Below are positions 8,094-59,622 of a stretch of DNA of 64,000 nucleotides, one piece after another. Made by a program: the position numbers and the translations under genes. The stretch is from the NCBI GenBank assembly GCA_016187125.1, contig JACPKF010000001.1, positions 238,178-302,177 on the forward strand, written 5' to 3'. This DNA is from Candidatus Saccharimonadota bacterium (GTDB taxonomy: Bacteria; Patescibacteriota; Saccharimonadia; Saccharimonadales; UBA10212). The notes beneath the pieces are model-generated. The model was not told the origin of the DNA. It was given only the letters and a program-made list of their open reading frames with translations, and did not search any database. The number at the start of each line of letters is the position of its first letter. Position 1 is the stretch's first letter.

Positions 8094-8170
8094 TTCTGGT
8101 TTACCACCCTTCGATCGTGAGCCTCAGGGTCGAACGATGAGCAAGGCAGAGATATCTCTGCCGGGTCGAA

Positions 8171-22342: not shown

Positions 22343-22575
22343 ATGATTCCCCTCTACCCACCCTTCGACGCGCCCCACGGGCTTGCTCAGGGTAAACCGC
22401 TCGATATATGTCGAAGGGTCCTGAGCGAAGTCGTCCATTCGATGTACTCAGGCCTTCGGCTCTGAGGCTCAGGCTCGAAGAGACGACCCTGAGCTTGGTC
22501 GAATGGGTCGAGGGACCGCATCACTTTAATTTGTAGCTTAACGATAACGCTTATTTGGAATTTACGCAACTAGTC

Positions 22576-22804: not shown

Positions 22805-23296
22805 ATGCCAAAACGTTCGTGGACGGACCAACAACTTGAGATTGCTGTAAGAGACTCAAAAAGCTATAGGTCGGTGCTCATTAAACTTGGCTTAATCCCA
22901 GCCGGAGGTAATTATGATCAAATCAAGCGGCGTATCAAAGAGCTAGCGATTCCGGCGGAGCACTTCACCGGCAAGGGCTGGAATGTTGGCGGAATGTTTA
23001 TTCCAAAGCCGGCGAAACCAATTGAACTGCTTCTGATTAAAGACAGTGATGTACAAAGCTACAAATTAAAAGTCAGGCTTTTTGCAAAAGGGTTAAAGAA
23101 GCCTAAATGCGAATTGTGTGGCTGGGCGGTCGTTGCTCCGGACGGTAGAGTGCCACTGGAACTAGATCATATCAACGGCAAACGGCGCGATAATCGTCTA
23201 GAAAATCTGCGGATTCTTTGTCCTAACTGCCACAGTCTTCAACCCACGCACCGTGGTAAAAATAAGAAGGTTAAACTAGCTCAAATATTAGCTTAG
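22805..23296 (+). CDS. HNH endonuclease
   Basis: CELCGW...LELDHINGKRRDNRLENLRILCPNCH (HNH with flanking Cys pairs). 163 aa, next to the tRNA pair. Confidence 0.8.
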   Translation: MPKRSWTDQQLEIAVRDSKSYRSVLIKLGLIPAGGNYDQIKRRIKELAIPAEHFTGKGWNVGGMFIPKPAKPIELLLIKDSDVQSYKLKVRLFAKGLKKPKCELCGWAVVAPDGRVPLELDHINGKRRDNRLENLRILCPNCHSLQPTHRGKNKKVKLAQILA

Positions 23297-27595: not shown

Positions 27596-29218
27596 TTAGA
27601 TTTTCTTATAAGAATCCAGATAGCCGCGCAGCAGTTTGGCCTTATGAGTACCGATTGAAAGAGCAATACTAGCTTCGGATGTCTGAGTAATTTCTTTGAC
27701 TGAGCCAAAAGTCTTGATCAGTTTCTTGCGGGTTACCGGGCCAAAGCCGGGTATTTCTTCCAGCATACTGGCAGTTTGCCGGTGCCGGCGGAGACTGCTG
27801 TGATAACTAAGCGCAAAACGATGCGATTCGTCCCGAATCCGCTGCAATAGTTTCACAAGATGAGAATTTTGTGACAGTTTAATAACCTTAAAACTGTTGA
27901 CTTCGTTCGGTTTGCGAACGATGATTTCTTCAAAACGTTTGGCAAGCCCGATCATTGGAATGTGACTACGGCCTCCATCATCTCGGGCTTTTAGGGCCGC
28001 CGCCAGTTGCCCTTTGCCGCCATCAATAAGTACTAAATCCGGCAAACCCCACTTTTTTATATTCCGGTCGCTAAAGCGACGATGGACAGCCTCGAACATA
28101 TGAGCAAAATCATCGTTACCGGCAAGTCGCATTTTAAACTTACGGTAAGCGGCTTTATATGGAAGACCGCTGGCAAATACCACCATACTGGCAGTTGTAT
28201 CACTTCCCTGAATATGACTGACATCAAACCCTTCTATCCGCCTCAGCTTGCGTAGCGGTCTGGCCTGCTGCCTGGCCGAGCTAGGCATGCCGCCAGACCT
28301 TACAGCGGATTGCGGCGTTGCAGGCTGTGCTGCTCCCTCATCGTATTGTTCTCCATACGCCTCAGTCCGCTGCTCGCCTGCGCCTTGCACTCCATCTGCA
28401 TACGCAAGCTGAGGTTCATTTTCGTAAAGTCCAAGTAATCCGGCCAGTTCTATTAGTGCCTGATCACGACTGGCTGCCTGGATTTCATGATCACCGAACA
28501 AAACTTGGCGGCTGAGAGCTTGAAGCGAAAATAGTTGATTGCGCAGCTTAGCGGCTTTTTCGAACTGTTCGGCTCGAGCCGCCTGTTTCATATCTTTTTC
28601 TATCTTTTTCATCAGCGCCACCCGATTGCCACGTAAATACTGCATTAACTTTCGAAGGTTTGCTCGGTAGTCGGTTAAACTTGTCCGGCCGTCTTCTAGG
28701 CCCGGATCTAGACCCAAGTGATAGTGCAGGCTGGAACGTTTTTGACCTACCGGTTTAGAAACGGCGTACGGGAAGGCTCGACGCAGATAACGCAGGGCTT
28801 TTTTGAGCGCCAAACTGTTGATATACGGCCCGAAATAGTCAGCGTCATCATCCAAAGGATGGCGGATAAGACTGACAGTCGGGTAATCACTTTTATAATT
28901 AATCCTCGCATAACTAAGGCTTTTGTCATCGCGCAGTAAAATGTTATAACGAGGCAGGTAGCGCCGGACCAGTTCGGCTTCTAAAAACAGAGCATCAACT
29001 TCGGTTTCAACCGGTGTCCAGTCAACATCAGCAATCTCGGCGATTAACAAATCAGTTTTGGGATCGCGGTAGCGGCTGGACTGGAAGTACTGCCGTACGC
29101 GGTTGAGCAAATTGGCGGCTTTGCCAATATAAATAATTTCACCGCTGGCGCTTTTATGAAAATAAACCCCCGGAGAGCTTGGTAATTTCTTTAGTTTCTT
29201 TTCCAACTTCACATTCAT
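27596..29218 (-). CDS. uvrC: excinuclease ABC subunit C
   Basis: GIY-YIG N-terminus (GVYFHKSASGEIIYIGKAANLLNRV), UVR motif (QFEKAAKLRNQL), RIEGFDVSH endonuclease domain and a C-terminal HhH. Confidence 0.9.
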   Translation of the reverse strand: MNVKLEKKLKKLPSSPGVYFHKSASGEIIYIGKAANLLNRVRQYFQSSRYRDPKTDLLIAEIADVDWTPVETEVDALFLEAELVRRYLPRYNILLRDDKSLSYARINYKSDYPTVSLIRHPLDDDADYFGPYINSLALKKALRYLRRAFPYAVSKPVGQKRSSLHYHLGLDPGLEDGRTSLTDYRANLRKLMQYLRGNRVALMKKIEKDMKQAARAEQFEKAAKLRNQLFSLQALSRQVLFGDHEIQAASRDQALIELAGLLGLYENEPQLAYADGVQGAGEQRTEAYGEQYDEGAAQPATPQSAVRSGGMPSSARQQARPLRKLRRIEGFDVSHIQGSDTTASMVVFASGLPYKAAYRKFKMRLAGNDDFAHMFEAVHRRFSDRNIKKWGLPDLVLIDGGKGQLAAALKARDDGGRSHIPMIGLAKRFEEIIVRKPNEVNSFKVIKLSQNSHLVKLLQRIRDESHRFALSYHSSLRRHRQTASMLEEIPGFGPVTRKKLIKTFGSVKEITQTSEASIALSIGTHKAKLLRGYLDSYKKI

Positions 29219-29289: not shown

Positions 29290-29671
29290 GGAGGTCACAA
29301 TCACAAAAAGTTTGGACAGATTAGCTTAAGGTGTTATACTTCCTGAATTATTAATGGTTTGCTCTCTCTTCATCGGGAAGAGAGCCCGAGCGTCGGATTT
29401 ATTCCGCCCATTCGACAAGCTCAGGGCGGCCTGAGCGGCAGTCGAAGGCCGCACCCGGCGCGATAATCGGGGTCCCCATGAAATTTATTTCATGGGGTAT
29501 GGTGAGAAACCCGCGATGCGAGGTGTCTCATAAGGCGAAGCCGCACTAACAGGGAGAAAGGAGTAATCAAATGTGTGCATCATCAGTCACGAGCCATTTA
29601 AGGGTTGCTTCTTTTGCAGCCTGTTAGCTCTTGTCAAGTAAAAAGTTTAAACTAAAAATAATCAAGTTAAA

Positions 29672-33005: not shown

Positions 33006-35857
33006 AGCATCTTAGCTAAGAATTGCCCGGTATAGCTAGCCTTTGTTTTGGCGATTTTTTCTGGTGGGCCTTCGGCAATTATTTGGCCACCGGCGTCACC
33101 GCCTTCGGGCCCCATGTCAATCACGTGATCGGCCGATTTAATCACGTCAAGGTTGTGTTCGATCACTATTAGGCTATTGCCAGCGTCGGCAAGAGCCTGC
33201 AGCACATGTAGTAGCTTGGCAACGTCGGCCATATGCAGGCCGGTAGTTGGCTCATCTAAGATATAAAGTGTCCGACCGGTTGGGCGCCGGCTAAGTTCGG
33301 TGGCCAACTTAACGCGCTGGGCTTCACCGCCGGACAGCGTGGTGGCTGGCTGGCCAAGCGTTATATAGCCTAACCCCACGTCCACCAAGGTCTGTAATTT
33401 CCGGGCGATTGTTGGAATGGCCGCAAAAAACTCTAAAGCCTGCTCGGTAGTCATGTCTAGGACACTATTTATGGTCTTGCCCTTGTAGTGAATTTCCAGA
33501 GCTTCCCGGTTATAGCGCTGACCGTGGCAGACTTCACAGGTTACATAAACATCCGGCAAAAAGTGCATCTCGATTTTGATTAGGCCGTCGCCGGCACAGT
33601 TTTCGCAGCGGCCGCCGCGGACATTAAAGCTGAAGCGACCGGGCGCATAGCCCCGCAATTTAGCTTCAGGTGTTGCCGCAAACAGCTCGCGAATAGGTGT
33701 AAATACGCCCGTATAGGTAGCCGGGTTGGAACGCGGCGTCCGACCAATAGGCGATTGGTCTATAACAATCGCTTTATCGAGTTGCTTGATGCCCTCAATA
33801 TCGTCATGCCGGCCCGGCGTAACTTGTGCCCTCATCAGCCTGGCGCTTAGTTCGCGGGCCAAAATGTCGTTGATTAGGCTGGACTTACCCGAGCCGCTGA
33901 CGCCACTGACTACCACCAGTTTGCCCAAGGGGATACTTACATCTATGTTCTTCAAATTGTTCTCACGGGCACCTTTTATGAGAAGCTGTTTACCGTTGCC
34001 CGAGCGGCGTTTCTTTGGTGTCGGAATAATTTTTTCTCCCCGTAAAAATTGGGCAGTAACACTGACTTTGACTTTAGCTACCTCGCCCGGTACACCGGTA
34101 GCCACGATTTTGCCGCCGTGAATACCGGCCCCCGGACCAATATCTACTAAGAAATCGGCGCTGCGAATAGTTTCCTCATCATGTTCAACCACTATTACGC
34201 TGTTGCCTAAATCTCTTAGCTGTCTAAGGGTGTTAAGCAAGCGTCTGTTGTCGCGTTGGTGCAGGCCAATGCTCGGTTCGTCCAAAACATACAGCACTCC
34301 TTGAAGCCCGGAGCCAATTTGAGTCGCCAAACGGATCCGCTGGGCTTCGCCGCCAGACAAACTGACAGCGCTGCGGGCCAAGTTAAGATAGTTAAGGCCG
34401 ACGTCTTGTAGAAACTTTAATCGGGCATTAATTTCTTTCAAAATTTGCTGAGCGATTTTAGTTTCGGTGGCGTCTAATTTAATAGTTTTGAAGAACTCCA
34501 GGGCTTTATCAATATCTAGTTCGCAAATATCCATAATATTACTTCTGGCAACTGTCACCGCCAAAACCTCGGGCTTCAGTCGCTTCCCGCCGCAACCGTG
34601 GCAAGGCTTCTCTTGCATAAATCGTTCTATATCACGCCGGATAAAATCGCTTTCGGTCTCTTTGTAGCGACGTTCTAAGTTGTAAACCACTCCCTCGTAA
34701 GTAGTGTTAAATGACCGGCCAACGCCCAGGCTGATTCTGTAGGTTTCACCGCCCGTACCATACAGGATTTTATCCAGTTGAGCAGCCTTTAACTCGCCTG
34801 TCGGTTGATGGATGCTAAAGCCATAGCGATCGGCTACAGCCTGCATTTTTTTCATATACCAGGCGTCGGTATTAATTCTATTGAAGGGGCGAATGGCGCC
34901 TTCGGCAATCGTCAGCCGGCCGTTGGGAACGACCAGTTCCGGGTCAACTTCCAGGCGGTTGCCCAGGCCAGTACAAACCGGGCAGGCACCGTGCGGGCTG
35001 TTAAAACTAAATGTCCTGGGCTCCAGCTCCGGAATTGCCACATCCGGATGATCGACACAAGCGTATTTTAATGAATAATGATACTCCTGCTCTTTGTGCG
35101 AGGTTAAACCTATCACATTGTTAAAGGCTACAACTGTTAGTAAGCCATCGGCCAGATCCAAGGCTTGCTCTACGCTTTGAGCTAGGCGCGTGCGGTTTTG
35201 TTGGTCATTAACCACACGATCAACCACAATTTCAATAGTGTGCTTGTAGTTTTTATCAAGTGTCGGAAACTCATCTAAGGCATAAATAATGCCGTCTACT
35301 CTAGCCCGGGCAAAGCCGGCCCGGGCAAATTGCTCTGGAATATGTTCGAAGGCGCCTTTTTTGTCTATTACTACGGGAGCAAGTATTATGATTTTACCAT
35401 CTTGAGTGGTCTTGATAACTTGATCCAAAATAGCGTTGCTTGTCTGACGGGTCACTGGCTTGGCACAAACCTGCTCGTCCGGCAGGCGGGCCGGACAATG
35501 TGCAATACCAATGCGGGCAAACAAAAGACGCAAATAGTCATAAATTTCGGTGACGGTTGCTACCGTGCTACGCGGATTGCGGCTGGCCGATTTTTGATCA
35601 ATACTGATGGCTGGGGAAAGACCGTCAATCTGGTCAACATCCGGTTTTTCCATAATCCCTAGAAATTGCCGAGCGTAAGCACTTAAAGACTCTACGTAAC
35701 GACGCTGGCCCTCGGCGTAAATTGTGTCAAAAGCCAGTGAAGATTTGCCCGAGCCCGACAGCCCGGTTATGACGACTAGTTTCTCGCGCGGAATCTCCAA
35801 AGAGATATTCTTTAAGTTATGCTCACGCGCTCCCCGAATACTAATAAACTCTGCCAT
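33002..35857 (-). CDS. uvrA: excinuclease ABC subunit A
   Basis: 951 aa. Two ABC modules ([22 protein letters not shown]), zinc-finger Cys motifs and two LSGGE signatures. Confidence 0.95.
35095..35117. repeat. copy (21/23) of the 23-nt palindrome, in-frame in uvrA
   Basis: TGTGCGAGGTTAAACCTATCACA. Encodes VIGLTSH in the same frame as the ligA and mnmA copies. Confidence 0.85.
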
Positions 35858-39734: not shown

Positions 39735-42599
39735 TTATTTTTTCTTGCCACTGGCCGGTTTAGCGTTGGAACCACCACTGATGGGTTTCGTAAAGGCGGC
39801 TGATTTACTGGGAGTCGGGTTAAAAGCGTTGGGGGCGAATTGGACTATGGAAGGCTTAGGCGGAGCAACCGAAACTACTACCGGCGGTTTGGGTGTTGGT
39901 TTGGGAGCGGCAGCTACAACCGGTGGTTTAGGTGTTGGTTTGGGGGCAGCAGCCGCGACTGGTGGTTTAGGTTTGGGCGGAGGGACGGAGGTTGTTGCAA
40001 AGGGTTTGGGTGTTGGTTTGGGAGCGGCAGCTACAACCGGTGGTTTAGGTGTTGGCTTAGGAGCAGCAGTTGCTACTACTGGTAGTTTCTTGGGCGGCGC
40101 CACTGGAGTAGGACTACTCATAACTACTTTTTTAGGCGGAGCGACCGAAGCTACTACTGACTTAGGTTTGGGCGGTGCTCCGGGGACAGGACTACTCATG
40201 ATGGGCTTAGACGGGAAGATTGTTGCCCCTGGCGTAGGCACTCCGGGTACAGGACTACTCATAGACACTAAGGCCGGTTTGGGCGGTGCTCCGGGGACAG
40301 GACTACTCATGATGGGCTTAGTAGGTATCGGAGATACTGCCGGCGAACTGGCAAGACCTCTCTCAGGACTGTTAGAGAAGCCAAAGGATGATGTTGCTAC
40401 AGCTGCTGGGACTACTGTCTTAGGGGGGGTAGCTAGCGGTGCGGTCTGGGCAGCATTGATAGCTGCCGCTTCAAGGTCATCGAAAGAAACCTTGGGCTGA
40501 GGAGGGATAGTCGGAGCGGCTACCGGAGCTGCTGATGCCGGAGGGGTAGCTAGCGGTGCGGTCTGGGCAGCATTGATAGCTGCCGCTTCAAGGTCATCAT
40601 ACGAAGCCTTATTTGCCTTAGCTGTGGTGGTCGGGGGAGTTAGAGGTACAGAATTGTCCTTAGCGTCCATAGCAGCATGATGATCAAAGACTTTTTGGGC
40701 TGAAGATTCAAAAGCTGATCCCAGAGGTTTGACATTATTATTTAGTGAGGCATTACCTACATCATCTGGCAGAGGGGTAGCTGATCCTATCGGCGCAGTT
40801 TGATCAGGATTGCTGGCTGCCATTATAGCGTCATCTAAGGAGGGTCTAGGCAGAGGAGAAGCTGCCGGGGTTACTGACGCCGGAGGGATAGCTGATGTTG
40901 ATCCTGTTGGTATAGTCGGTGCATCATCTCCCAATGCAGCCGCGTGGTGCGCTTGTACTACTGGATTATTACTAATGGCAACATTTATCCTGGTTGCCGG
41001 AGTCGAGGCAGGCAGAGCCGTTGCCTTAGGTTCAGGCACTCCCGGAACAGAACTGGGTATTGCCGGAGCCTTTCGGATCGTGTAAGGTGTATGGCCTTCA
41101 ACTTGCTCAATTTTAGCGCCCGATGCCGTGGTAGTTATAGTTACACCAGGGCTAGGATGTTCAGTCTTAACAGGCTTAGCGCCACCAGTATAGGCCGGTG
41201 GATAGACAGGAGGTGCTGCTCCTGGAACAGGACTAGGCATGGTAGGTTGAGACGGTGTTACTACCGGAACAGAACTGCCCATAATGGGCTGGGGCGACAC
41301 TCCCGGAACAGGACTACTCATAGCTGGGGCTTGACTTGTCGTAGGAAAAGATAAAGATACGGGAACGCTACCAAAGTCCGTAGTAACAGGCGCTTTGCTA
41401 CTGGGAGGTGGGAAGTGGGCTGTGTCATTAGAGGCGATCGACGACTTAGAAGAAGATGCTACCAACGGATTGACAAGACCTCTTTCAGAAGTGCTGGGAG
41501 AACCAAAAGATGTTGCCGGCAGATTCACGGTGCCTCTGTCAAAAAGGCTATGACTATCAAGAGATGGAAAGTGGGCTGTGTCATTTGCGGCAACTAGGCT
41601 TGCCGAGGCTGTTGGGGTTTGTAAGGCTGATGGATCGCCATCGCCAGAGTCACCCCTGCCTTGACCATCTTGAACAACAAGATGCTCGCTCAATATACCG
41701 CTGCCGATAGCTTTATTAACTTGCGCTTGGTTTAGATGGGAAGTGTCCCACACTTCACCGTTTTTAATAAATGATGCGTAGCCGTCAGTAAAGATACGCT
41801 CTACTACTCCGGTTTTGGGGTCTTCAATGGTTTTAAGAATATTGTCCGTAGTGTGAGGTACCGGATGAGATTTAATCTGAAAATACTGACTAGCTGCTGC
41901 TTGGTTCCGGGGAGGCATCGCAGCCGCGGAAGCGGCTGCCGGCGCGACTGCTTTAGCTATATCTGGAGAAGTTTCGCCACCGACAACTCCAAGTGGTCTC
42001 GGCGTAACTTGATCGCCTCTTAGCCCGCCGCCAGCTGGCGGCTCTGTGCCTGGAGGTGTTTCGCCACTGCCGCCACCGAACGGGTTGGTACGAACAGGAA
42101 TGCCCCCGCCAGGTGCTGCTGGAGGGGTGGTCACATCTCTTGGCTTAACATCCGTTTGGGTGCCAGGTCCGTAAGGGGTCGGAGCACCCGTATCTAAGAC
42201 TTTGCCACGATCACCATATTTAGTCCATGAACCATCAGGTTTATAAACTGTTACTGAACCATCGGGATTTCTAGTAATTTTTTCGCCGCCGGGAGTTGTA
42301 TGTTCTTTCAACGGTGATGTATTAGCCGCTGCGGCTAGCGCATTGTTTGGTACACTTGCTGTTGGAGCCTCAGAACTATCCTGCGGATCAGTAGAATAAG
42401 AAGTAACTAAGCCGTTCTTGCTGTAAACGTAGCCTGTCTTTCCGTCTGGGGAAACGGTTGTGTATTGACCACCATCGTTTAGATTGAAGTAGCCGCCTTT
42501 TTTTACCCAGGTGTCGCCAGTCCAGCTCCACCCATCACCGGGGGGTTTCGATGGAATCTTATTACCCTCTTTCTTACGACCTAGGCCGAAAAGTGCCAT
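39735..42599 (-). CDS. 954-aa proline/alanine/serine-rich modular repeat protein, unknown function
   Basis: A long ORF with a good AAGGA-type RBS. The N-terminus has beta-hairpin-like repeats (GWSWTGDTWVKKGGYF, SPDGKTGYVYSKNG, NPDGSVTVYKPDGSW). The rest is PxP-rich with exact internal DNA repeats. Confidence 0.7.
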   Translation of the reverse strand: MALFGLGRKKEGNKIPSKPPGDGWSWTGDTWVKKGGYFNLNDGGQYTTVSPDGKTGYVYSKNGLVTSYSTDPQDSSEAPTASVPNNALAAAANTSPLKEHTTPGGEKITRNPDGSVTVYKPDGSWTKYGDRGKVLDTGAPTPYGPGTQTDVKPRDVTTPPAAPGGGIPVRTNPFGGGSGETPPGTEPPAGGGLRGDQVTPRPLGVVGGETSPDIAKAVAPAAASAAAMPPRNQAAASQYFQIKSHPVPHTTDNILKTIEDPKTGVVERIFTDGYASFIKNGEVWDTSHLNQAQVNKAIGSGILSEHLVVQDGQGRGDSGDGDPSALQTPTASASLVAANDTAHFPSLDSHSLFDRGTVNLPATSFGSPSTSERGLVNPLVASSSKSSIASNDTAHFPPPSSKAPVTTDFGSVPVSLSFPTTSQAPAMSSPVPGVSPQPIMGSSVPVVTPSQPTMPSPVPGAAPPVYPPAYTGGAKPVKTEHPSPGVTITTTASGAKIEQVEGHTPYTIRKAPAIPSSVPGVPEPKATALPASTPATRINVAISNNPVVQAHHAAALGDDAPTIPTGSTSAIPPASVTPAASPLPRPSLDDAIMAASNPDQTAPIGSATPLPDDVGNASLNNNVKPLGSAFESSAQKVFDHHAAMDAKDNSVPLTPPTTTAKANKASYDDLEAAAINAAQTAPLATPPASAAPVAAPTIPPQPKVSFDDLEAAAINAAQTAPLATPPKTVVPAAVATSSFGFSNSPERGLASSPAVSPIPTKPIMSSPVPGAPPKPALVSMSSPVPGVPTPGATIFPSKPIMSSPVPGAPPKPKSVVASVAPPKKVVMSSPTPVAPPKKLPVVATAAPKPTPKPPVVAAAPKPTPKPFATTSVPPPKPKPPVAAAAPKPTPKPPVVAAAPKPTPKPPVVVSVAPPKPSIVQFAPNAFNPTPSKSAAFTKPISGGSNAKPASGKKK

Positions 42600-44094: not shown

Positions 44095-44198
44095 ACCTAA
44101 AGAGTACCTAGTCGCTAGTCGCTAGTCCATAGCCGACTAGCTCTCAGTCCTTAGCCGTTAGCTCATAGCTAGGTGCTATCAGCTATGTGCTAGGAGCT

Positions 44199-46690: not shown

Positions 46691-47176
46691 TCACGCCAGC
46701 ACTCTTTCTTCGTTAGACCCGTCAAGAAAATCTTGAAGGATCGCCGCCGCCGCCAGACTATGCTCATCCGTGTTGCTTGTTGCTTTTTGCTTACCTGCCC
46801 TGAGCTTGCCTGCGGTGAGCTCGCTCGCAGTGAGCTTATCGAATCTGTCCAATCCGTCGGACGGCTTGCCCCTTGCCTGGACGGTCGTTAGAGCTTCATC
46901 CTGCCAGTAAAAAGGCAACCCTACCTTATTCTTGGCTGCAGCGACCCATTGGCGTACCCAAGCGGTTTGGGCGCTGTCTTCGCTCTGAAGATTTCTAGGT
47001 AATCCGACTACGATTGCCTGGGCTCCGTTTGCCTTGATGAGGCCTGACAAACTATCTAATAGTTTGTCAGTCGGAAGGCTCGGCAGCGGCTGGGCGATTT
47101 TGGCCAGGCTTGAGCCCCTGGCTATGCCGGTGCGCTTGACTCCCAGATCTACGCCTAAAAATTCCATTTTCTCCAT
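46691..47176 (-). CDS. ruvX: Holliday-junction resolvase-like RuvX/YqgF with an internal repeat-derived insertion
   Basis: The GVDLGVKRTGIA N-terminus and DEHSLAAAAILQDFL C-terminus are typical. The segment DRFDKLTASELTAGKLRAGKQ is encoded by GC-rich repeat DNA (about 46794-46858). Confidence 0.8.
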   Translation of the reverse strand: MEKMEFLGVDLGVKRTGIARGSSLAKIAQPLPSLPTDKLLDSLSGLIKANGAQAIVVGLPRNLQSEDSAQTAWVRQWVAAAKNKVGLPFYWQDEALTTVQARGKPSDGLDRFDKLTASELTAGKLRAGKQKATSNTDEHSLAAAAILQDFLDGSNEERVLA

Positions 47177-50697: not shown

Positions 50698-52623
50698 TTA
50701 TTCAAGAACGGCTTTAATTCTGCGTACTCCTGCACTGGATGCTTCCTCTTTGGTGATTTTGAACTTTCTTTGTGGTGAGCCTGCCTGCGGTGAGCCAGTC
50801 GAATCCGTCGAACCATTGCCGCCCTGACCGATTTGGCCAGTATGCTGCACATGCGGGCCGCCGCAGATTTCGCGGCTGAAGGGCTTTTTGGGATCGCCAA
50901 TGGTGTAAACCTTGACTTTGTTGCCATATTTATCGCCAAAAGCGCCAGAAGCGGTCTTTAAAGCTTCCGGCGTTTTTTCTTCTTTCCAAGTCACCGGCAA
51001 GTCTTCGGCGATTTTTTGATTGACGATATCTTCTACTTGCTTAATTTGCTCGGCCGTCACCTTTTGGGAATGGCTAAAGTCAAAGCGCGTACGCTCGGCA
51101 GTTATATTGCTACCCCGCTGCACAACATGGTCGCCCAATACTTGCTTCAGAGCCCGGTACATCAGATGAGTCGCTGTATGGTATTTAACTACCTGCTGCG
51201 AATGATCGGCCAAGCCGCCCTTGAACATGCCAACACTAGCCGTTTGGCTGCGATGGCGCTGCTTAGCCATTAGATCTTTAAACTGCCCTTGCCACTCCTT
51301 ACTAACGGTAACTTTTTGCAGATAGGCTTCTTCTAAACTTAGCTCCACCGGAAAGCCATAAGTGTCGTAAAGTTTGAAGACATCAGCTCCGGTGAGTTGC
51401 TTTTTCTGTTCGGCCAGCTTGAAAAATTGGCGAACGCCAGCCCGGAGGGTTTGGCGAAAGATTTTTTCTTCTCGCATAAACAGTTCGACTACTTCATTTT
51501 TTTGTTGATTAACTTCTGGAAAATTCGGAGCGTAAAGGCTGGTGATTGTTGGCACTACCTGCTGGCATAAATCTTGTTCTATCCCGAGTTCAAAAGCATA
51601 ACGAATGGCTCGGCGCAGTAGCCGGCGCAAGACATAACCCTGGGCTTTATTACTTGGCGCAACCCCGTCAACCGCCAAAAAAGTGGCAGCTCGCAGATGG
51701 TCAGCGATTACCCGCATGCTGGTTTGGTGTTGCTGATAATCCTTACCGCTTAAGCCCTCCAGGCCGCTGATTATTGGTTTTATAAGGCTGATTTTGAACA
51801 TATCGGGATCATCATTGACAGCTGCAGCTATGCGTTCCAGCCCGCCGCCAAAATCAACGTTGGGCGCAGGCAATGGTTCGAAGCCTTTGGATGTTTTCTT
51901 GTAAGCCATAAACACGCTGTTACCTATTTCACCAAAACGGCCGCAATCACAGTTTGGGTGACAATGCTTGCCAAATTTTTGGTCATGTGGGGTCTCAAAA
52001 TCGTAAAAAACCTCGCTGTCCGGACCGCCCGGTTCGCCCTCACGCATATTGACTGGCGGGCCTTCGCGGCTCCACCAGTTTTTAGAAGCATCGTAATAAA
52101 AGATGCGGCCGCTTCGCATACCTTTGGCATAGCCATTAGCGTTGGAGCCGATTTCTACTTCTTTAGCTTCTAGGCCGCTAGCAGCGAATAATTTCTTCCA
52201 GATTTCAGCCGACTCGGTATCTTTGGGCACGCCAGTTTCTTTATCACCAATAAAACAAGTCACATAAAGTTTTTTCGGATTAAGGCTTACAGCGTCCGTT
52301 AAAAATTCCCAGAACCACGGCAGTTGCTCGGATTTGTAATAATCGCCTAGGCTCCAGTTGCCCAGCATTTCAAAAAAGGTGGTGTGACGATTATCGCCGA
52401 CTTCGTCCATGTCTTCGGCGCGGAAGCAGGTTTGACTATCCACCAGCCGCTTGCCGTCAGGGTGTTTTTCGCCCAGCAAATATGGCACCAGCGGCTGCAT
52501 ACCGCTACCGGTAAATAAAGTTGTCGGGTCGTCCTGTGGCACCAAACTAGCCCGCGGCAATATTTTATGGCCCTTCGCCTCAAAAAACTCCAGATATTTT
52601 TTACGTATTTCCTGCGCTGTCAT
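50698..52623 (-). CDS. alaS: alanine--tRNA ligase (short form) with a repeat-derived insertion near the C-terminus
   Basis: Class II core (FFEMLGNWS, GGGLERI), editing domain HTATHLM...CGGPHV. The segment QGGNGSTDSTGSPQAGSPQR lies between TGQIG and KFKI and is encoded by GC-rich repeat DNA (about 50768-50830). Confidence 0.9.
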   Translation of the reverse strand: MTAQEIRKKYLEFFEAKGHKILPRASLVPQDDPTTLFTGSGMQPLVPYLLGEKHPDGKRLVDSQTCFRAEDMDEVGDNRHTTFFEMLGNWSLGDYYKSEQLPWFWEFLTDAVSLNPKKLYVTCFIGDKETGVPKDTESAEIWKKLFAASGLEAKEVEIGSNANGYAKGMRSGRIFYYDASKNWWSREGPPVNMREGEPGGPDSEVFYDFETPHDQKFGKHCHPNCDCGRFGEIGNSVFMAYKKTSKGFEPLPAPNVDFGGGLERIAAAVNDDPDMFKISLIKPIISGLEGLSGKDYQQHQTSMRVIADHLRAATFLAVDGVAPSNKAQGYVLRRLLRRAIRYAFELGIEQDLCQQVVPTITSLYAPNFPEVNQQKNEVVELFMREEKIFRQTLRAGVRQFFKLAEQKKQLTGADVFKLYDTYGFPVELSLEEAYLQKVTVSKEWQGQFKDLMAKQRHRSQTASVGMFKGGLADHSQQVVKYHTATHLMYRALKQVLGDHVVQRGSNITAERTRFDFSHSQKVTAEQIKQVEDIVNQKIAEDLPVTWKEEKTPEALKTASGAFGDKYGNKVKVYTIGDPKKPFSREICGGPHVQHTGQIGQGGNGSTDSTGSPQAGSPQRKFKITKEEASSAGVRRIKAVLE

Positions 52624-52741: not shown

Positions 52742-53590
52742 GTGGCTATTTTACTGGCTTATATTTTTTACTTCGTAGCTTCTACTTCCTCGAAGTTGCA
52801 ACGACGACAACTGGCGACGACCCGCGAAACCGATGTTGGACAGATTGACTTTGCCTTCCGCGTAACATTGATAATTTTTGTTTTAACTCCCCTGCTAATA
52901 CTGTTCAATCGGCCGGTGTTCAACCAGCCAATCGGCACTTTAATTATGCTATCGACGGTCTGTGGAGCATTCGGTGCAATCGCATTAAGTACCCAGTATG
53001 TAGCACAACGCCACGTCGAGGCTGGCTTAACCTCTCTAATAGGCAACATTTACGCACCGACGACGATTGTACTTGCGACCATACTGTTGAACGAGGGGCT
53101 CAAAGCCCGTCAGGTCATCGGCGCAATTCTATTAATAAGTTCAGTGGTTTTGGTTAGTCGAAAGCATCGGTTAAGCCGGTGGCGTTTTGACCGTTACTTC
53201 TGGCTGAACGTTATAGCCGGCGTTGCATTGTCTTTTGGCTTAACCGCCGAGCGAGCTTTAATCAAATACAACAGCTTAACGACCGGCGCTTTGCTGAGTT
53301 GGGGTTCTGGAGCTCTTTTTCTAGGACTGGCGGCTTTAGCCAGTGGCACTAAAAGCCAGCATAACCTCAAAGAGGCATCTCTGACGGGGAGTCTGCGCTT
53401 TTTACACCAGGTGTCATGGATTGTTTTGGTGACAGTTGTAGCAAACTTAAGCGTGGTTTCTGCTGTAGCGACATTTTCAACAGCTGTGACTTTTTTCGCG
53501 GCGGCCATCTTCCTACATGAACGCGAAGACTTAAAACGCAAGATTATCGGCAGTTTTATTGCTGCAGCTGGTTTGCTTCTGATGGTTTAG
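52742..53590 (+). CDS. EamA/DMT-family transporter
   Basis: 282 aa, about 10 TM helices in two similar halves. Confidence 0.65.
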   Translation: MAILLAYIFYFVASTSSKLQRRQLATTRETDVGQIDFAFRVTLIIFVLTPLLILFNRPVFNQPIGTLIMLSTVCGAFGAIALSTQYVAQRHVEAGLTSLIGNIYAPTTIVLATILLNEGLKARQVIGAILLISSVVLVSRKHRLSRWRFDRYFWLNVIAGVALSFGLTAERALIKYNSLTTGALLSWGSGALFLGLAALASGTKSQHNLKEASLTGSLRFLHQVSWIVLVTVVANLSVVSAVATFSTAVTFFAAAIFLHEREDLKRKIIGSFIAAAGLLLMV

Positions 53591-54705
53591 ATGACTATTC
53601 CCCCACCCAAACATTCTGCACCGCAGTAGAAAACAGCTGATTGACCAGGAGTTAGCGCCCGCACTTCTTCTTCAAGTTCCGCCATCACACCTTCCATAGG
53701 GTACGACCCTATAAGGGTGAGTGATTTGACTGGAATTAGTTTTGCCCGATGCCTTGTCCGCACTTGCAAGGCTTGGCCTTGCAAAGGGGCTTCATTGATC
53801 CAATGCATATCAGTAAGCCGGATTTCCTTGCTCCAGAGTTTTGCGTCTTGCAGGTCGGTTGTGACATAGACTTCGTTTTTTTTCATGTTTTTGCCAGTGA
53901 CGTAATATGGCAAGCCGCCCTGCCTGCCGGCAGGCAGGCGCCAACCTATATCTAAGCCGTGGCGCTGACCGATAGTATAAAAGATAGCCCCGTCATGCTC
54001 ACCGATTTCTTTTTGGTTTTGGTCAATAATTTTGCCAGGTTTTTGCTTGACGAACTGCTCCAGGAAATCTTTGATCGGAACTTTGCCGACAAAACAAATA
54101 CCCATGCTTTCTTTCTTTTTGGCAGTCACTAGATTATTTTTCTCAGCTAGCTTTCTGACTTGCGGCTTGGTTAGGTCGCCCAGTGGAAAAATAGTTTTTG
54201 CCAATGCTTTTTTTGATACGCGGTACAAAAAATAAGTCTGATCTTTAATTTGGTCTTTGGCCATTAGTAACTGCGAACTTGTCTTGTGATAGGTTAAACC
54301 TATCACAGAGCGCGCGTAGTGACCGGTGGCGATCAAATCTGCTCCATCTTCCAAAGCTGTTTCCAAAAAGAGTTTAAATTTAATTTCCTGATTGCACATA
54401 ATGTCCGGGTTTGGCGTGTGACCAGCTTTGAATTCATCAAGCATATAATCCACAACTTTTTGCTTATACTGCTTTTGGAAGTCATACATTCTAAAATCTA
54501 TACCAAGCTGGATGGCCACCCGCTTGGCGTCTTGATAATCTTCTTGCCAGGGGCATTTCATACCGGGCAAATCCTGGCTCCAGTTTTTCATATAAACACC
54601 AGCAACGTTGTAGCCCTGCTGTTTTAGCAGCAGAGCCGAAACGGAAGAATCCACGCCACCGGATAAACCAACATACACCTTTTTCATCGGATTACAGTTT
54701 AGCAT
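53587..54705 (-). CDS. mnmA: tRNA 2-thiouridine(34) synthase MnmA
   Basis: PP-loop GLSGGVDSSV, catalytic Cys context (NPDIMCN, GICF), DQTYFLY motif. Alternative start at 54687. Confidence 0.9.
   Translation of the reverse strand: MLNCNPMKKVYVGLSGGVDSSVSALLLKQQGYNVAGVYMKNWSQDLPGMKCPWQEDYQDAKRVAIQLGIDFRMYDFQKQYKQKVVDYMLDEFKAGHTPNPDIMCNQEIKFKLFLETALEDGADLIATGHYARSVIGLTYHKTSSQLLMAKDQIKDQTYFLYRVSKKALAKTIFPLGDLTKPQVRKLAEKNNLVTAKKKESMGICFVGKVPIKDFLEQFVKQKPGKIIDQNQKEIGEHDGAIFYTIGQRHGLDIGWRLPAGRQGGLPYYVTGKNMKKNEVYVTTDLQDAKLWSKEIRLTDMHWINEAPLQGQALQVRTRHRAKLIPVKSLTLIGSYPMEGVMAELEEEVRALTPGQSAVFYCGAECLGGGIVI
53919..53938. repeat. 20-nt perfect GC palindrome CCTGCCTGCCGGCAGGCAGG in-frame in mnmA
   Basis: Read directly from the sequence. 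Encodes LPAGRQG within DIGWRLPAGRQGGLPYY. Confidence 0.85.
54285..54307. repeat. 23-nt perfect palindrome TGTGATAGGTTAAACCTATCACA, in-frame in mnmA
   Basis: Identical to the ligA copy. Encodes VIGLTYH. Confidence 0.9.
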
Positions 54706-55384: not shown

Positions 55385-57070
<1,686 letters not shown>

Positions 57071-57227
57071 ATTCTACCTCTCTTCGAGTCTGAGCCTGAG
57101 GGCTCATCCCTCAGAGTCGAATGACAGGTAAAATCAGCTGATAGCGTGCAGAGTACGGCGTATAGATTGACGGCAATTGCTGAACTCTGAAACCTGAAAC
57201 CTGAACCCTGATGATGAGTAAAGCGAA

Positions 57228-58079
57228 TCATAGTTGGTTTCCACCACGCAAATTATTTAGCAGTTCTTTTAGTCGCTCGTCCTTAATGTGCCGTTTAGCG
57301 TGGGCATACAGGCGATTGAAATCTGTGTAGGAGTCGTCGGCTTTCTCATGGGCCATTCTCATAGCTCGAAAACGGCTGGCATATTGTGCCAGTTTGGACT
57401 CCAGAATAACTTCGGACAGGGCAATCTGCATCATGGAACGTTCCAGGTGGTCAATAACCGCATGGGGGCTTGGCTCAAAAATATAATTAGCTTCGGTAAT
57501 AATTTCGGCTCCTGGTTTGACCTTAGCGCTCAGCCGCTCGACAGCCGTACCAAGTTTTATAGTTTTAACCGCCTGGTTCATCAGCGACATATAGCTTTGG
57601 TAATAAACGATCGTCGAAACATATTTTTGCACCTCGTTGACTAGTGGCTCTACATTAATATTTTGTTCGCTTTCCGGCAGCGTATAAGTCCTGGCAAAAC
57701 CTACACCTGCCTGCAGTAGTTGCACCGCGCCGTGGCGGCCAATAACAACGATATCATTTGCCTCCGACTTATAATCCATCAGAGCTTGGGCTACCAGTCT
57801 TTGGTCAATATCACCACTGAAACTTGACTCTGAGGTAATTAAAATCATCAGTTCTTTATTAATTAACTTAATGTTACCGCCACGCCCGAAATGAAATTGT
57901 TTGTCGATACGAATCTGATTATAAATTTGCCAAAGGTCTGCGAAAAATTTTTCGCTGCGTTGCACCTGGTCTTTAACCTGAGCAATCTTGGTAGAGGCAA
58001 TACCCTCAAAAGCACTGGTTAGTTCAATCAGTATGGCGGCCGCTTGGCGTTGGTGCGCTATATCAGTCAACTGTCTCAT
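57228..58079 (-). CDS. atpG: F-type ATP synthase gamma subunit
   Basis: 283 aa. Sits between alpha and beta. The N-terminal IxxxxxIxxITxAMxxVAxxK-like region and a C-terminal helix ending KELLNNLRGG are gamma-like. Confidence 0.8.
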   Translation of the reverse strand: MRQLTDIAHQRQAAAILIELTSAFEGIASTKIAQVKDQVQRSEKFFADLWQIYNQIRIDKQFHFGRGGNIKLINKELMILITSESSFSGDIDQRLVAQALMDYKSEANDIVVIGRHGAVQLLQAGVGFARTYTLPESEQNINVEPLVNEVQKYVSTIVYYQSYMSLMNQAVKTIKLGTAVERLSAKVKPGAEIITEANYIFEPSPHAVIDHLERSMMQIALSEVILESKLAQYASRFRAMRMAHEKADDSYTDFNRLYAHAKRHIKDERLKELLNNLRGGNQL

Positions 58080-58192
58080 CCCGTTAGACCTCCAAAAAAC
58101 AAACAGCGATTATTTTTGCGTCGAAGCAAGCACAGAGGTCCAAATGTAAACCAAGGTCCGGAAGTTAAGTGGAGTCTCATGGGACTCATGAG
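58080..58192 (-). repeat. 113-nt repeat copy B, immediately upstream of atpG (contains its SD)
   Basis: GGAGGTCTAACGGG lies next to the ATG. The distal partner CCCATGAGACTCC is at the same 91-nt offset and overlaps the atpA stop. Confidence 0.8.
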
Positions 58193-59622
58193 GCTGTTCC
58201 TTGGGCGCCGAATCCACTTTTAATAGCCGCCAGTAGGTTTTGGTAGTCGCTACCAGGCTTGGCAGCGGCGGCTGTGTCGTTAGCCAGTTTTTTGAGAGTG
58301 TTTATGTTCAAGCTGCCGGGAACATTGCCCGACAAAAGGCTGTCAAGCATCAACTGCTCGGCCAGCAGACCGTAGGTTTCGCCCGGTATTTGAGTAAAGA
58401 GTTGGTTGATCTGCGCCCCAATGGTCAGCAGTTGTTGTGTAGTCAGGGTCATCTCGGCTCCAAAATGGGTAAACTCTTGAGCTTTACGATAATCGGCCAG
58501 AATTTTAAAAACTTGACTCGCCTGCCAGCGTTGATGCTCGTTTTGGCCAACGGCACCTACCCTTGTAACACTCAAGCCAACATTCACCGCTGGTCGCAAA
58601 CCAGAGCGAAAAACTTCCATATCCAGCACCCACTGGCCATCGGTAATTGACATGATATTGGTCGGCAAGTAAGAAGAGATGTCGCCGCTTTCGGTTAAAA
58701 CCAGTGGCAAAACGGTTAAGCTTTTGTGATTTTTCTTAAGTTTTCCGGCCCGTTCTAGCAAGCTGGAATGGGCATGGAATATATCGCCGGGATAAGAATC
58801 ACGTCCCGGACTGACGCCCGAGAGCAAAGAGATCTCTCGGTAGACGTGAGCATGAGCAGTTAAATCATCATAAATCAAAAGAGCGTCCTGGCCGACGACT
58901 TGCCAAAGATATTCGGCCATGGCGCAGGCAGTGTAGGGTGCTAAATAGCTACTGACTAAGGAGTCAAAAATGGTCGAGACAACAACTATGGTCTTATCCA
59001 TCACCCCACTGTCACTCAGACGTTGCAACAAAATATCAATATCGCTGCGACGTTTGGCGATCATCACATAAATTACTATTTGGTCAGTGCTACGTTGGTT
59101 AATGGCAATTTGGGTAGCCAGAGTTGATTTACCTGATTTACTATCGCCAAGTATGGCTAGTCGTTGACCTCTTACAATCGGAAAAAGGCAGTCAATCAAA
59201 GTTACACCAGTTTCTAACTGAGTATTTAATAGTTCCCGTTCATAGATTGGCGGAGCAGGACCAAATACCGGCCAGTTAGCATCGGCGGCTATTGGTCCCT
59301 TGCCGTCTAGCGGATCGCCGCTCACCGAAACTACTCGGCCAATAAAATCCTTGCCGACTTTGGCGGTTAATTCCTCTTGCCCAACAGCTGCCAGCATGCC
59401 GATTTTAAACTGAGCGCTGCCTAGATTTAAAACAGTTACACGGGTCTCTAAAATATGTTGGACAAAGCCTTTGTTGCCGTTCTCAAAAATAACCAACGAG
59501 TGAGTACTAACCGGCTGCAGGCCTTTTATCTCGATCAGGAAATTATTAATGCCAATAACCTCGCCAACCGGCCGACCAGCATCAACCAGTTTTTGAAAGT
59601 GTTGGTCTACATCGTCAGTCAC
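58186..59622 (-). CDS. atpA: F-type ATP synthase alpha subunit
   Basis: Walker A GDSKSGKST, YDDLTAHA and SITDGQ motifs. 478 aa. Confidence 0.9.
   Translation of the reverse strand: MTDDVDQHFQKLVDAGRPVGEVIGINNFLIEIKGLQPVSTHSLVIFENGNKGFVQHILETRVTVLNLGSAQFKIGMLAAVGQEELTAKVGKDFIGRVVSVSGDPLDGKGPIAADANWPVFGPAPPIYERELLNTQLETGVTLIDCLFPIVRGQRLAILGDSKSGKSTLATQIAINQRSTDQIVIYVMIAKRRSDIDILLQRLSDSGVMDKTIVVVSTIFDSLVSSYLAPYTACAMAEYLWQVVGQDALLIYDDLTAHAHVYREISLLSGVSPGRDSYPGDIFHAHSSLLERAGKLKKNHKSLTVLPLVLTESGDISSYLPTNIMSITDGQWVLDMEVFRSGLRPAVNVGLSVTRVGAVGQNEHQRWQASQVFKILADYRKAQEFTHFGAEMTLTTQQLLTIGAQINQLFTQIPGETYGLLAEQLMLDSLLSGNVPGSLNINTLKKLANDTAAAAKPGSDYQNLLAAIKSGFGAQGTAS

Follow-up and report, generated by a model that had tools for sequence, protein, structure and literature searches.

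In this study, we analysed a window of 64 kb, which is the whole stretch of DNA under consideration, and we believe it quite probable that two segments inside the genes ruvX and alaS derive from a REP-like mini-hairpin repeat, of which they would be in-frame, translated copies. Both inserts are built from a modular stem-loop unit of approximately 24 nt (8 codons), and their translation is suggested by the intact reading frames. The original prediction, that a repeat family colonises both spacers and housekeeping ORFs, was supported by the enrichment of a composite motif, by a covariance model and by further in-frame copies. The sequences and ORFs also confirmed the places of the two segments, that both are in frame, and that they are read in different frames, the shared words being read as TTC GAT AAG CTC in ruvX and as T TCG ACT GGC TCA in alaS.

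The ruvX gene occupies 46691-47176 on the minus strand, which is its coding strand, and its product contains ...DGLDRFDKLTASELTAGKLRAG.... Within it lies an in-frame block of 72 nt at 46793-46864 (minus strand), translated as PSDGLDRFDKLTASELTAGKLRAG. The block consists of three 9-nt 'A' subunits (CCGTCCGAC, GGATTGGAC and AGATTCGAT) and, after them, of three 15-nt 'B' subunits (AAGCTCACTGCGAGC, GAGCTCACCGCAGGC and AAGCTCAGGGCAGGT), and the block can thus be parsed as three nested 24-nt units. Covariance-model matches were found within it at 46825-46850 and 46795-46818. In an alignment of 26 RuvX sequences, the insert was absent from 22 of the 25 orthologues, and the site was occupied only in the three nearest relatives. 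The inserts of the relatives were 24 or 48 nt long, with one unit in P0003 (CCATTCGACAAGCTCAGGGCAGGC) and two in P0002, and no insert was present at the syntenic Saccharibacteria loci L132, L367 and L368. The window derives from a metagenome-assembled genome, and the segments might on that account be taken for an artefact of assembly or binning. The ruvX block, however, was identical in five independent Logan assemblies from different runs, and graded versions occur in related lineages from other samples, and we regard the chance of such an artefact as close to nil.

The alaS gene lies at 50698-52623, also with the minus strand as its coding strand, and its product contains ...GNGSTDSTGSPQAGSPQR.... 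The in-frame block at 50768-50815 (minus strand) is 48 nt long and encodes (N)GSTDSTGSPQAGSPQR. In it, an inner 24-nt unit, GGATTCGACTGGCTCACCGCAGGC, sits in the loop centre of an outer unit, TGGTTCGAC...AGGCTCACCACAAAG, and the canonical TGGTTCGACAGGCTCACCA is recovered when the inner unit is taken out. The covariance model matched the block at 50785-50810 (E 0.031). Among 120 AlaRS C-termini, 117 had no insert and read GEG-G-KKFKI. In the DNA alignment of alaS, L132 was insert-free, and L129, L130 and L131 carried 24-nt versions. It had been claimed that the two segments interrupt otherwise canonical RuvX and AlaRS, and the orthologue alignments bear this out, the segments being lineage-specific insertions and not conserved ancestral linkers. 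A position in loops is likewise favoured by the AlphaFold models, in which both inserts are predicted as low-pLDDT coil between confident elements: residues ~100-137 of RuvX had a pLDDT of 47-69 and the rest >90, and residues 164-184 of a 205-aa AlaRS fragment were coil with a pLDDT of 56-67 and flanks of >90. Candidate peptides that span the ruvX and alaS inserts are FDKLTASELTAGK and STDSTGSPQAGSPQR.

The unit has a conserved core of 13 nt, TTCGACARGCTCA with TGAGCYTGTCGAA as its opposite strand, inside a covarying 4-bp stem. Its consensus is TCGnnCTGAGCTTGTCGAAGCnCnn, and its length is 21-25 nt. In 237 instances, the four flanking positions of the stem were paired in 94, 95, 93 and 80% of cases, respectively, with the stem types GCCC/GGGC, GGGC/GCCC, GTGC/GCAC and GTGG/CCAC, and 10-50 double-sided changes were counted per inner stem pair. 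The covariation score was 0.539, compared with 0.226 in shuffles (0 of 500 reached 0.539) and at most 0.21 in slid controls. The unit is a defined 24-nt stem-loop module with a covarying stem and not a loose set of words. A nearly constant 13-nt core together with a covarying closing stem suggests that a folded strand is recognised by some conserved partner. Since TTCGA and GCTCAG resemble words of the tRNA T-loop and D-loop, a tRNA origin was considered as a possibility.

The words alone do not carry this signal, since single words (TCGAA, TTCGA, GCTCAG and others) were not enriched in the window over dinucleotide shuffles. The word-frequency argument for the family therefore fails for single words and stands for the composite unit, which marks a genuine family: the composite motif TTCGACAAGCTCAGGGC, with up to 3 mismatches, had 2 matches in the window against 0.07 expected. 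A covariance model was also trained on 105 copies, all from other phyla. Its five best matches in the window were 29405-29429, the alaS insert, 29426-29452, 22484-22510 and the ruvX insert, with E values from 2e-5 to 0.49 (Poisson P ~1.6e-4), and the window holds approximately 8-10 units or relics in total. The segments could instead be ancestral variable linkers or local low-complexity expansions that resemble the spacer blocks by compositional chance, as the lack of single-word enrichment and the weakness of two spacer blocks under the covariance model would allow. This reading is contradicted by the RuvX and AlaRS orthologue alignments. Against it also stand the recovery of both ORF inserts by the cross-phylum model, the presence of the unit in five other protein families, and a 20-nt identity (CCATTCGACAAGCTCAGGGC) between window positions 29408-29427 and the ruvX insert of the relative P0003, and we consider it highly improbable.

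The best-preserved spacer copy lies at 29405-29452, between the divergently oriented uvrC and an ABC transporter gene, and its inverted units CGCCCATTCGACAAGCTCAGGGCGG and GCGGCCTGAGCGGCAGTCGAAGGCCGC form one hairpin. It contains an exact 17-mer match, its covariance-model matches are 29405-29429 on the minus strand (E 2.3e-5) and 29426-29452 on the plus strand (E 0.052), and its fold z is -2.4. By sequence, covariance model and fold, several degenerate units of either orientation were seen to cluster at 22350-22520, 3' of tRNA-Leu and tRNA-Cys (minus strand) and upstream of a small minus-strand ORF. The covariance model matched this cluster at 22484-22510 on the plus strand (E 0.13) and at 22371-22395 and 22449-22477 on the minus strand, and the fold z of the dimer region at 22430-22530 was -5.0. 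The composite pattern also matched at 8107-8170, between the 3' ends of the ORF 7473-8093 (plus strand) and of tRNA-Ala (minus strand), where degenerate units CCCTTCGATCGTGAGCCTCAGGGTCGAACG...GGGTCGAATGG flank a short perfect hairpin. This copy has an inverted-repeat match to 22455-22480, and we regard it as a relic or an uncertain member because its fold is weak (z = -1.3) and the covariance model gave no match to it at E<10. Within the ATP synthase operon, the spacer between atpG and atpD contains a degenerate inverted pair, CTCTTCGAGTCTGAGCCTGAGGGCTCATCCCTCAGAGTCGAATG, at 57080-57123, which has an inverted match to 22459-22483, a fold z of -3.6 and a weak covariance-model match at 57091-57106 (E 4.4). 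Of the four spacer blocks that had been proposed, 29405-29452 and 22350-22520 were thus recovered, and 8107-8170 and 57080-57123 are weak under the covariance model. Spacer units are usually inverted pairs that make longer hairpins, and within genes a single orientation alone survives. The intergenic pairs fold (z = -2.4 to -5.0), whereas the ORF copies have lost their hairpin potential (z = -0.6 and +0.2).

Two further segments had been put forward as possible copies. The one in mnmA, at 53920-53943 on the minus strand, is a real palindromic in-frame insertion of 24 nt, TGGCGCCTGCCTGCCGGCAGGCAG, translated as WRLPAGRQ. Of 120 MnmA orthologues, 114 lack the 8-aa insertion, and the 6 that have it are distributed patchily. 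Comparison with MnmA structures in the PDB had suggested a trivial loop difference of +3 aa at LPAGRQG, and the orthologue alignment overturned this with a clean +8 aa. The window, L367 and L368 share exactly the same DNA in this insertion (CGCCTGCCTGCCGGCAGGCAGGGC), with differing flanking codons. Membership of the same family did not hold, as the palindrome has no TTCGAC/GCTCA core; it also has no covariance-model match, and the sole stretch that it shares with the alaS B subunit is the 9-mer GCAGGCAGG. It is a 24-nt insertion family of its own, outside the TTCGAC/GCTCA family. The low-complexity segment of uvrC was rejected as a copy, for it contains none of the motif words and is a normally variable interdomain linker between the UVR and RNaseH-like domains.

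The family extends across phyla and is not confined to this genome. The unit is present in Proteobacteria, Acidobacteria, Chloroflexi, Actinomycetota, Patescibacteria and viral contigs, and at least 120 genome contigs from many phyla contain the exact 17-mer TTCGACAAGCTCAGGGC, as do 114 viral contigs. CCC directly preceded 115 of the 133 genome matches, and 54 had an inverted partner within 90 nt. The core is nearly invariant across phyla with 36-72% GC, for example from Sphingomonas to Saccharibacteria. A plasmid search returned 5-23 dimers in each of the Sphingobium chromids, all unannotated copies, and nothing else. In-frame copies were also found in PepA, AspRS, PolX, EF-P and a beta-CASP RNase of other Saccharibacteria and Patescibacteria, and those of EF-P and PepA correspond to gaps of 8-9 residues relative to solved homologues. 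Literature searches with the peptide or DNA strings of the unit returned nothing relevant, and those on Saccharibacteria repeats and Sphingomonad REPs returned general REP/MITE papers only.

The orientation of the copies was tested in contigs of at most 52% GC, with ORF-resident copies assignable to one strand; high-GC contigs were left out because spurious long ORFs made the assignment noisy. The ORF-resident copies of these low-GC contigs were 30 in sense and 5 in antisense orientation (p ~0.001-0.004), and the frames used by ORF-resident copies were STSS(G/P)Q in 19, LRQAQG in 5 and FDKL in 3. Such a strong bias in orientation and frame could mean that the segments are selected functional additions of particular lineages, either peptide linkers or intragenic RNA or DNA regulatory hairpins, and not passengers. 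The repeated occupation of the same loops, the DNA identity of the mnmA palindrome in three genomes despite differing flanks, and the RF02901 sRNA family, which is built on a dimer of the unit and transcribed in Aggregatibacter, agree with this explanation. However, purifying selection that removes harmful translations is expected to produce the biases equally well. The host proteins share nothing, disorder is predicted for the loops that contain the inserts, most orthologues work without the inserts, and hairpin potential is lost in the ORF copies. We therefore consider a selected function improbable.

For copies of a REP-like mini-hairpin repeat, we propose that a copy landing in a tolerant surface loop would add 8 residues of hydrophilic, flexible peptide. 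Five of the six reading frames of the unit are stop-free and its length is a multiple of three, which would explain why copies persist in genes. New units are added preferentially at the core centre of an existing unit (TTCGAC^ARGCTCA), and this addition at the centre produces the layered series AB, AABB and AAABBB, with lengths of 24, 48 and 72 nt for ruvX, whereas the steps of alaS are 24 and 48 nt. The units are presumably mobilised as DNA, probably in the form of single-stranded hairpins on which some factor acts in trans, much as has been proposed for REPs, and the inserted peptides are presumably translated and functionally near-neutral. The notion that nesting is peculiar to this lineage was rejected, as a metagenome scan showed AABB composites to be widespread.

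The same blocks might arise without transposition, if patches were copied from ectopic repeats by break repair or template switching and the 9- and 15-nt subunits were duplicated by slipped-strand events. No transposase or RAYT (Y1 HUH) was found among approximately 50 ORFs of the window, with Pfam scans negative for a RAYT in approximately 45 ORFs of >=150 aa, and alignments and direct inspection found no target-site duplication in ruvX or alaS, with a junction ambiguity of at most 1 nt in alaS; both results suit this explanation. Arrays with unequal subunit numbers (1A/4B in L023, and the classes (1,2), (2,1), (4,1) and (10,4) in metagenomes) indicate that replication slippage also operates, tandem 24-nt arrays occur in L093 and L321, and slippage could explain part of the layering. 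Yet the multiplicities of the A and B subunits are strongly coupled in metagenomes, with (2,2) in 23 of 121 units (Fisher p 1e-10), and the inner unit of alaS is identical at 21/24 positions to the middle unit of ruvX but at only 17/24 to its own outer unit. In the alaS of L368, a 48-nt inverted dimer occupies precisely the same central position of the same outer unit, which is beyond local slippage, and in the AlaRS tree the insert is patchy, the same alaS loop being occupied in non-sister lineages. Patch copying with slippage as the whole explanation is therefore unlikely, in our opinion, and we prefer insertion of a REP-like unit.

This preferred model leaves the near-identity of the core across phyla of 36-72% GC unexplained. 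A bolder reading, which we hold tentatively and think somewhat doubtful, is that the unit is a cross-phylum, self-targeting mobile '8-codon module' that inserts in frame, nests at its own loop centre and repeatedly targets the same loops of essential proteins. If true, it would generally drive the growth of loops and linkers in the core proteins of gene-dense Patescibacteria, and the near-invariant core would imply recognition by a conserved enzyme or host factor. For candidate-phyla-radiation bacteria, the repeat offers a concrete origin, at the level of DNA, for the lineage-specific insertions of their essential proteins. The genomes of these bacteria have almost no spacer DNA, so that a repeat can persist mainly inside genes. 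The nested series AB, AABB and AAABBB would serve as a built-in clock of successive insertion events at one site. For annotation, PFDKLRAG, PSTSSGQ, LRQAQG, STGSPQ and LSLSKG in predicted proteins should be read as translations of the repeat and not as domains.

The closest known parallels are the Rickettsia palindromic elements and intragenic REPs. The former were reportedly described by Ogata and colleagues in 2000 both in spacers and in frame within housekeeping genes, among them tRNA synthetases and repair genes. These elements have frame-compatible lengths, and they presumably lie in surface loops and are presumably translated; RPE-1 is palindromic, measures ~100-150 bp and is confined to Rickettsia. 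Similarly, the unit occurs in spacers and in frame in unrelated housekeeping ORFs, in predicted loops of low pLDDT. Compared by description, it differs from RPE-1 in its 24-nt length, its Saccharibacteria host, its cross-phylum occurrence, its conserved core and covarying stem, and its stacking by nesting.

GTAG/CGTC REPs are described in the running text of Di Nocera et al. 2013 (PMC3733652) as stem-loops of 20-40 nt that are often inverted dimers and lie mostly downstream of genes. According to the same text, some lie inside replication, repair and tRNA synthetase genes, where they encode 20-30 or more residues, some insert within other palindromes, and no dedicated transposase is known for CGTC REPs. 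Like these REPs, the unit is an imperfect palindrome in the 20-40-nt range that forms a stem-loop and occurs as inverted dimers, in the window at 29405-29452, 22430-22530 and 57080-57123. In contrast, its consensus has no terminal GTAG/CGTC tag, an internal TGTC being present in the core, and the REP rules given in that text (AT at stem positions 1-2, a 4-5-nt loop and a CCA tail) do not fit it. The loop is conserved and the stem variable in the unit, whereas the stems are the defined part of GTAG/CGTC REPs as that text presents them; the core strings of the unit are absent from its running text, figure consensuses apart. Bacterial MITEs such as Coxiella QMITE1 are 150-400 bp long, end in inverted repeats and are flanked by direct-repeat duplications of the target (PMC5896051). 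As a class, MITEs span approximately 50-500 bp. The unit resembles ORF-overlapping MITEs as a non-autonomous repeat that overlaps ORFs and adds peptide segments, but it has neither terminal inverted repeats nor target duplications.

No Rfam family reached its threshold in the window, where RF02901 had no match, and the best outside match of RF02901 on related loci was sub-threshold at 44.8 bits, compared with a gathering threshold of 97. The consensus of this family, AaHKsRNA41 (Aggregatibacter sRNA 41), contains GCUGAGCUUGCCGAAGC ... GGUUCGGCAAGCUCAGC, an inverted dimer of the unit. RF02901 describes a single-locus sRNA and not a repeat family, and since this sRNA contains the dimer, transcription of such a dimer is shown for a single organism, Aggregatibacter.

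The genes ruvX (46691-47176) and alaS (50698-52623), named from ORF and Pfam annotation, and mnmA (53587-54705) and uvrC (27596-29218), all on the minus strand, are those named in the original prediction. The quoted ruvX and alaS segments were found on this coding strand and gave the quoted peptides, in different frames as claimed: ruvX reads the core as TTC GAT AAG CTC (F D K L), and alaS reads it as T TCG ACT GGC TCA (S T G S). Alignment with 25 Saccharibacteria orthologues showed that 22 RuvX proteins lack the segment; in these, a short loop joins the conserved QDEALT helix to DEHSLAAA. Extra residues were confined to the three nearest relatives, P0003, P0002 and P0004, and were PFDKLRAGRQ, PFDRFDKLTASELRASKQ and the degenerate SFAKAAADKQ, respectively. 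At the DNA level, P0003 carries a single unit, CCATTCGAC-AAGCTCAGGGCAGGC (24 nt, a 9-nt A and a 15-nt B subunit), P0002 two A and two B subunits (48 nt), and the window three of each (72 nt, 46793-46864). At three syntenic loci of other Saccharibacteria (L132, L367 and L368), RuvX is a segment-free protein of 136-141 aa. The segment thus interrupts an otherwise canonical protein.

The same holds for alaS, because 117 of 120 AlaRS orthologue C-termini run uninterrupted through GEG-G-KKFKI. The orthologues P0121 and P0122 have 8 extra residues (GNGS(A/T)GSP(H/R)R), P0225 has 8 (VDSTGSPVR), and the window has 16. DNA alignment with an insert-free relative placed the empty site between GGCGGCAA and GAAATTC, and the insertion measures 48 nt in the window (50768-50815) against 24 nt in the relatives. 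When the columns of the insert were masked, the insert-bearing AlaRS sequences were not mutual nearest neighbours; therefore, the site was gained repeatedly or lost precisely several times. Those of L367 and L368 were nearest to insert-free sequences, and P0122 matched the insert-free P0127, P0124 and P0123 at 84-86%. The insert junctions of P0225 and P0122 are offset by about 4 nt, which is compatible with an independent event in P0225.

A scan for TTCGACAAGCTCAGGGC in one genome per species returned at least 120 rows, and the taxa among the matches listed included Sphingomonadaceae, Burkholderiales, Acidobacteriota, Dehalococcoidia, other Chloroflexota, Actinomycetota, Verrucomicrobiota, Chlamydiota, Bacteroidota, Saccharibacteria and others. 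Chance does not account for these 17-mers: among the matches listed, CCC directly preceded 115 of 133 copies, GAAC(GG) or AGGC followed most, and an inverted partner lay within 90 nt of 54 of the 133. Across all 237 instances of TGAGCNNGTCGAA in the matching loci, the four flanking positions per side paired in 94, 95, 93 and 80%, with the pair types GCCC/GGGC, GGGC/GCCC, GTGC/GCAC and GTGG/CCAC. The covariation score in a 105-sequence alignment was 0.539, compared with 0.226 after shuffling (0 of 500 shuffles reached 0.539) and at most 0.21 with slid partners. The unit is therefore a small stem-loop in which a 13-nt core is conserved and the stem covaries. This core hardly varies among hosts of 36 to 72% GC. 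Inverted unit pairs often form a longer hairpin with CCGTTCG...CGAACGG at its flanks. The alaS insert has the TGG/CCA stem type (TGG-TTCGACAGGCTCA-CCA), and the outer ruvX unit has CC(C/A)/GGG, the variant also present in the window spacer copy at 29405-29429.

A covariance model built only from copies of other phyla was run on the window without filters. The five best matches were 29405-29429 in the uvrC/ABC spacer (E 2.3e-5), 50785-50810 in the alaS insert (E 0.031), 29426-29452 in the same spacer (E 0.052), 22484-22510 in the tRNA-Leu cluster (E 0.13) and 46825-46850 in the ruvX insert (E 0.49); weaker ones fell at 22371-22395, 57091-57106, 46795-46818 and 22449-22477. Five matches at E <=0.49, where 0.49 are expected, correspond to P ~1.6e-4, the E-values being rough. 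The composite motif was over-represented in the window; the single shared words were not, and are no evidence of a repeat on their own. Of the proposed intergenic blocks, those around 29405-29452 and 22484-22510 were thus recovered; the ones at 8107-8170 and 57080-57123 are degenerate and best regarded as relics. As single strands, the spacer pairs folded more stably than shuffles (z = -5.0, -3.6 and -2.4), unlike the ruvX and alaS ORF blocks (z = -0.6 and +0.2). A 163-aa ORF (22805-23296, plus strand), which matches HNH_3 endonucleases (E 3.7e-6) and may be a mobile-element remnant, adjoins tRNA-Cys/tRNA-Leu and the largest repeat cluster.

The blocks follow the order AB, AABB and AAABBB, not ABAB. 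Without its inner 24 nt, the alaS block of the window reduces to the canonical TGGTTCGACAGGCTCACCA. The inner unit, GGATTCGACTGGCTCACCGCAGGC, is identical at 21 of 24 positions to the middle ruvX unit and at 17 of 24 to its own outer unit, and this resemblance is why GACGGATT and GCTCACCGCAGGCARGCTCA are common to ruvX and alaS. L368 represents an independent lineage, and there a 48-nt inverted dimer splits the same outer alaS unit at the same point, between TTCGAC and AGGCTCA. In metagenomes scanned for the CCG-stem subtype, AABB composites whose outer layer is CCC/GGG and whose inner layer is GG/CC were common among the matches listed; 69 of the 121 distinct units listed were single and 23 were (2,2), and A and B multiplicities were coupled (odds ratio 17, p 1e-10). 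We infer that units would insert preferentially into the core centre of pre-existing units. Unequal arrays also exist (1A/4B at locus L023, and others), which indicates that slippage contributes too. Long tandem arrays of the unit or its subunits occur in other phyla (L093 of Actinomycetota, L321, L050, L331 and L298), one of them being 5 x CCCTTCGACAAGCTCAGGGCACGA immediately upstream of a proB-like start; the unit therefore also acts as a minisatellite.

The matches listed (at least 120) included five Saccharibacteria genomes and one from elsewhere in the Patescibacteria, and five of these six copies lay in frame within genes, namely PepA (KPSSPSTSSGQLRPTVLVGKGVTFDTGG), PolX (EIEAALRQAQGKPGGLPKLI), AspRS (EWKEEDPSTSSGQKKGRWDAVHHPFT), EF-P (VVFWTHSTSSGQENRAIDLELP) and a beta-CASP RNase (EIWAGGPSTSSGQVKIVFSGDLG). 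Aligned with solved homologues, the EF-P and PepA segments appear as clean gaps of 8-9 residues; for AspRS, where the region is variable, the picture is less clear. The in-frame copies make use of each of the three forward frames. Apparent in-frame copies were also seen in putative host genes (a terminase-like gene, an aroE-like gene and a 707-aa viral ORF) at L026 (Allosphingosinicella), L074 (Eremiobacterota) and the viral contigs L139/L208, so ORF colonisation is probably not limited to Patescibacteria. On contigs of <=52% GC, where ORF calling is more reliable, TTCGAC..GCTCA lay on the coding strand in 30 ORF-resident copies and opposite in 5 (p = 0.001, or 0.004 without duplicates, against a null of three open forward and two open reverse frames), and the Ser/Thr-rich STSS(G/P)Q frame dominated the forward copies (19:5:3). 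A mechanistic strand preference may produce the orientation bias; orientation and frame bias together are the pattern expected if benign translations alone survive. The location of the insertions was examined in AlphaFold models built with orthologue alignments, which are confident overall (mean pLDDT 83 for RuvX and 85 for the C-terminal 205 aa of AlaRS). Both inserts were predicted as low-confidence coil, in RuvX at about residues 100-137 (pLDDT 47-69) between helices 95-103 and 138-152, and in AlaRS at fragment residues 164-184 (pLDDT 56-67) between the HVxHTG turn and the KFKI strand.

Two further segments had been proposed as copies. The low-complexity uvrC segment was rejected, as it has no motif and sits in an inter-domain linker. 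The mnmA segment WRLPAGRQ (53920-53943) is indeed an in-frame palindromic insertion of 8 residues (24 nt), which 114 of 120 orthologues lack and six, patchily distributed, contain, but it is not of this family: its perfect 20-nt palindrome has no TTCGAC/GCTCA core, and the other-phylum model gave no match there in the window. We therefore treated it as a separate insertion. The window, L367 (about 10740-10763) and L368 (about 2558-2581) share exactly this DNA, CGCCTGCCTGCCGGCAGGCAGGGC, read as WRLPAGRQ/RRLPAGRQ, and differ in the neighbouring codons. The three MnmA proteins are about 70% identical, and most closer orthologues lack the palindrome; either recurrent same-site insertion or nucleotide-level constraint would account for the identity.

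Several other repeats were observed. A perfect 23-nt palindrome, TGTGATAGGTTTAACCTATCACA, forms a second in-frame family inside three unrelated housekeeping genes, ligA (11132-11154), mnmA (54285-54307) and, degenerate, uvrA (35093-35117), with one common frame giving (N/S)VIGLT(Y/S)HK. LTYHK/LTFHK occurs at the same MnmA site in the orthologues P0242, P0283, P0288 and P0301, and the palindrome had no match in 366 fetched loci or the viral contigs. Dozens of Saccharibacteria MnmA orthologues carry differing inserts of 4-55 residues at a hot spot after about window residue 133 (following ATGHYAR), such as ARSSQLSAKSSQLVG, APAHSSQLTANS, TPAKSPSSPKVHQ and long Ser/Pro-rich segments, several of which look like translations of other simple repeats. 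The intergenic direct-repeat family D7, with TAGCTNTTAGC-type words (5353-5420 and 44138-44176), gives the impression of being related to the SSQLSAKS-type peptides of MnmA orthologues. A 127-nt direct repeat, 83% identical (56953-57079 and 58075-58201), makes up the leader sequences of atpD and atpG in the ATP synthase operon; it had no Rfam match and may be a shared cis-regulatory or processing element. The 954-aa ORF at 39735-42599 (minus strand), in a region of strong GC skew, has many 39-, 42-, 78- and 117-nt internal repeats and no Pfam match, and probably encodes a repetitive surface protein. A perfect 26-nt inverted repeat (32916-32941/32980-33005, 38-nt spacer), unrelated in sequence to the 24-nt family, lies between a VTT-domain gene and uvrA, which converge on it.

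Pfam scans of the roughly 45 ORFs of >=150 aa revealed no transposase, integrase or RAYT in the 64-kb window, and no target duplication is visible at the inserts. Because the loop is conserved while the stem covaries, the sequences argue for recognition of the unit as a folded single strand, which could be DNA or RNA. The consensus of Rfam RF02901, an Aggregatibacter sRNA family, holds a dimer of the unit, indicating that at least one copy is transcribed. Overall, the observation of the original prediction is confirmed, and its interpretation, a repeat family in both spacers and housekeeping ORFs, is supported with corrections.

In-frame repeat insertions in housekeeping genes are of a known kind. 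They have been described for the Rickettsia RPEs and for GTAG/CGTC REPs in several phyla, with cases including uvrA, dnaE, recB and tRNA synthetase genes, as well as REPs inserted within other palindromes (PMC3733652). ORF-overlapping MITEs have been reported in Coxiella (PMC5896051). We found no description of the 24-nt family in the searchable literature, and one may still exist. In contrast to the RPEs, REPs and MITEs, the present family has a unit of 24 nt, is very widely spread over phyla, grows via nesting, shows a strong frame and orientation bias and is prominent in gene-dense Patescibacteria; compared with the GTAG/CGTC REPs as described in the text of PMC3733652, it has a conserved core and a variable stem, without the GTAG tag.
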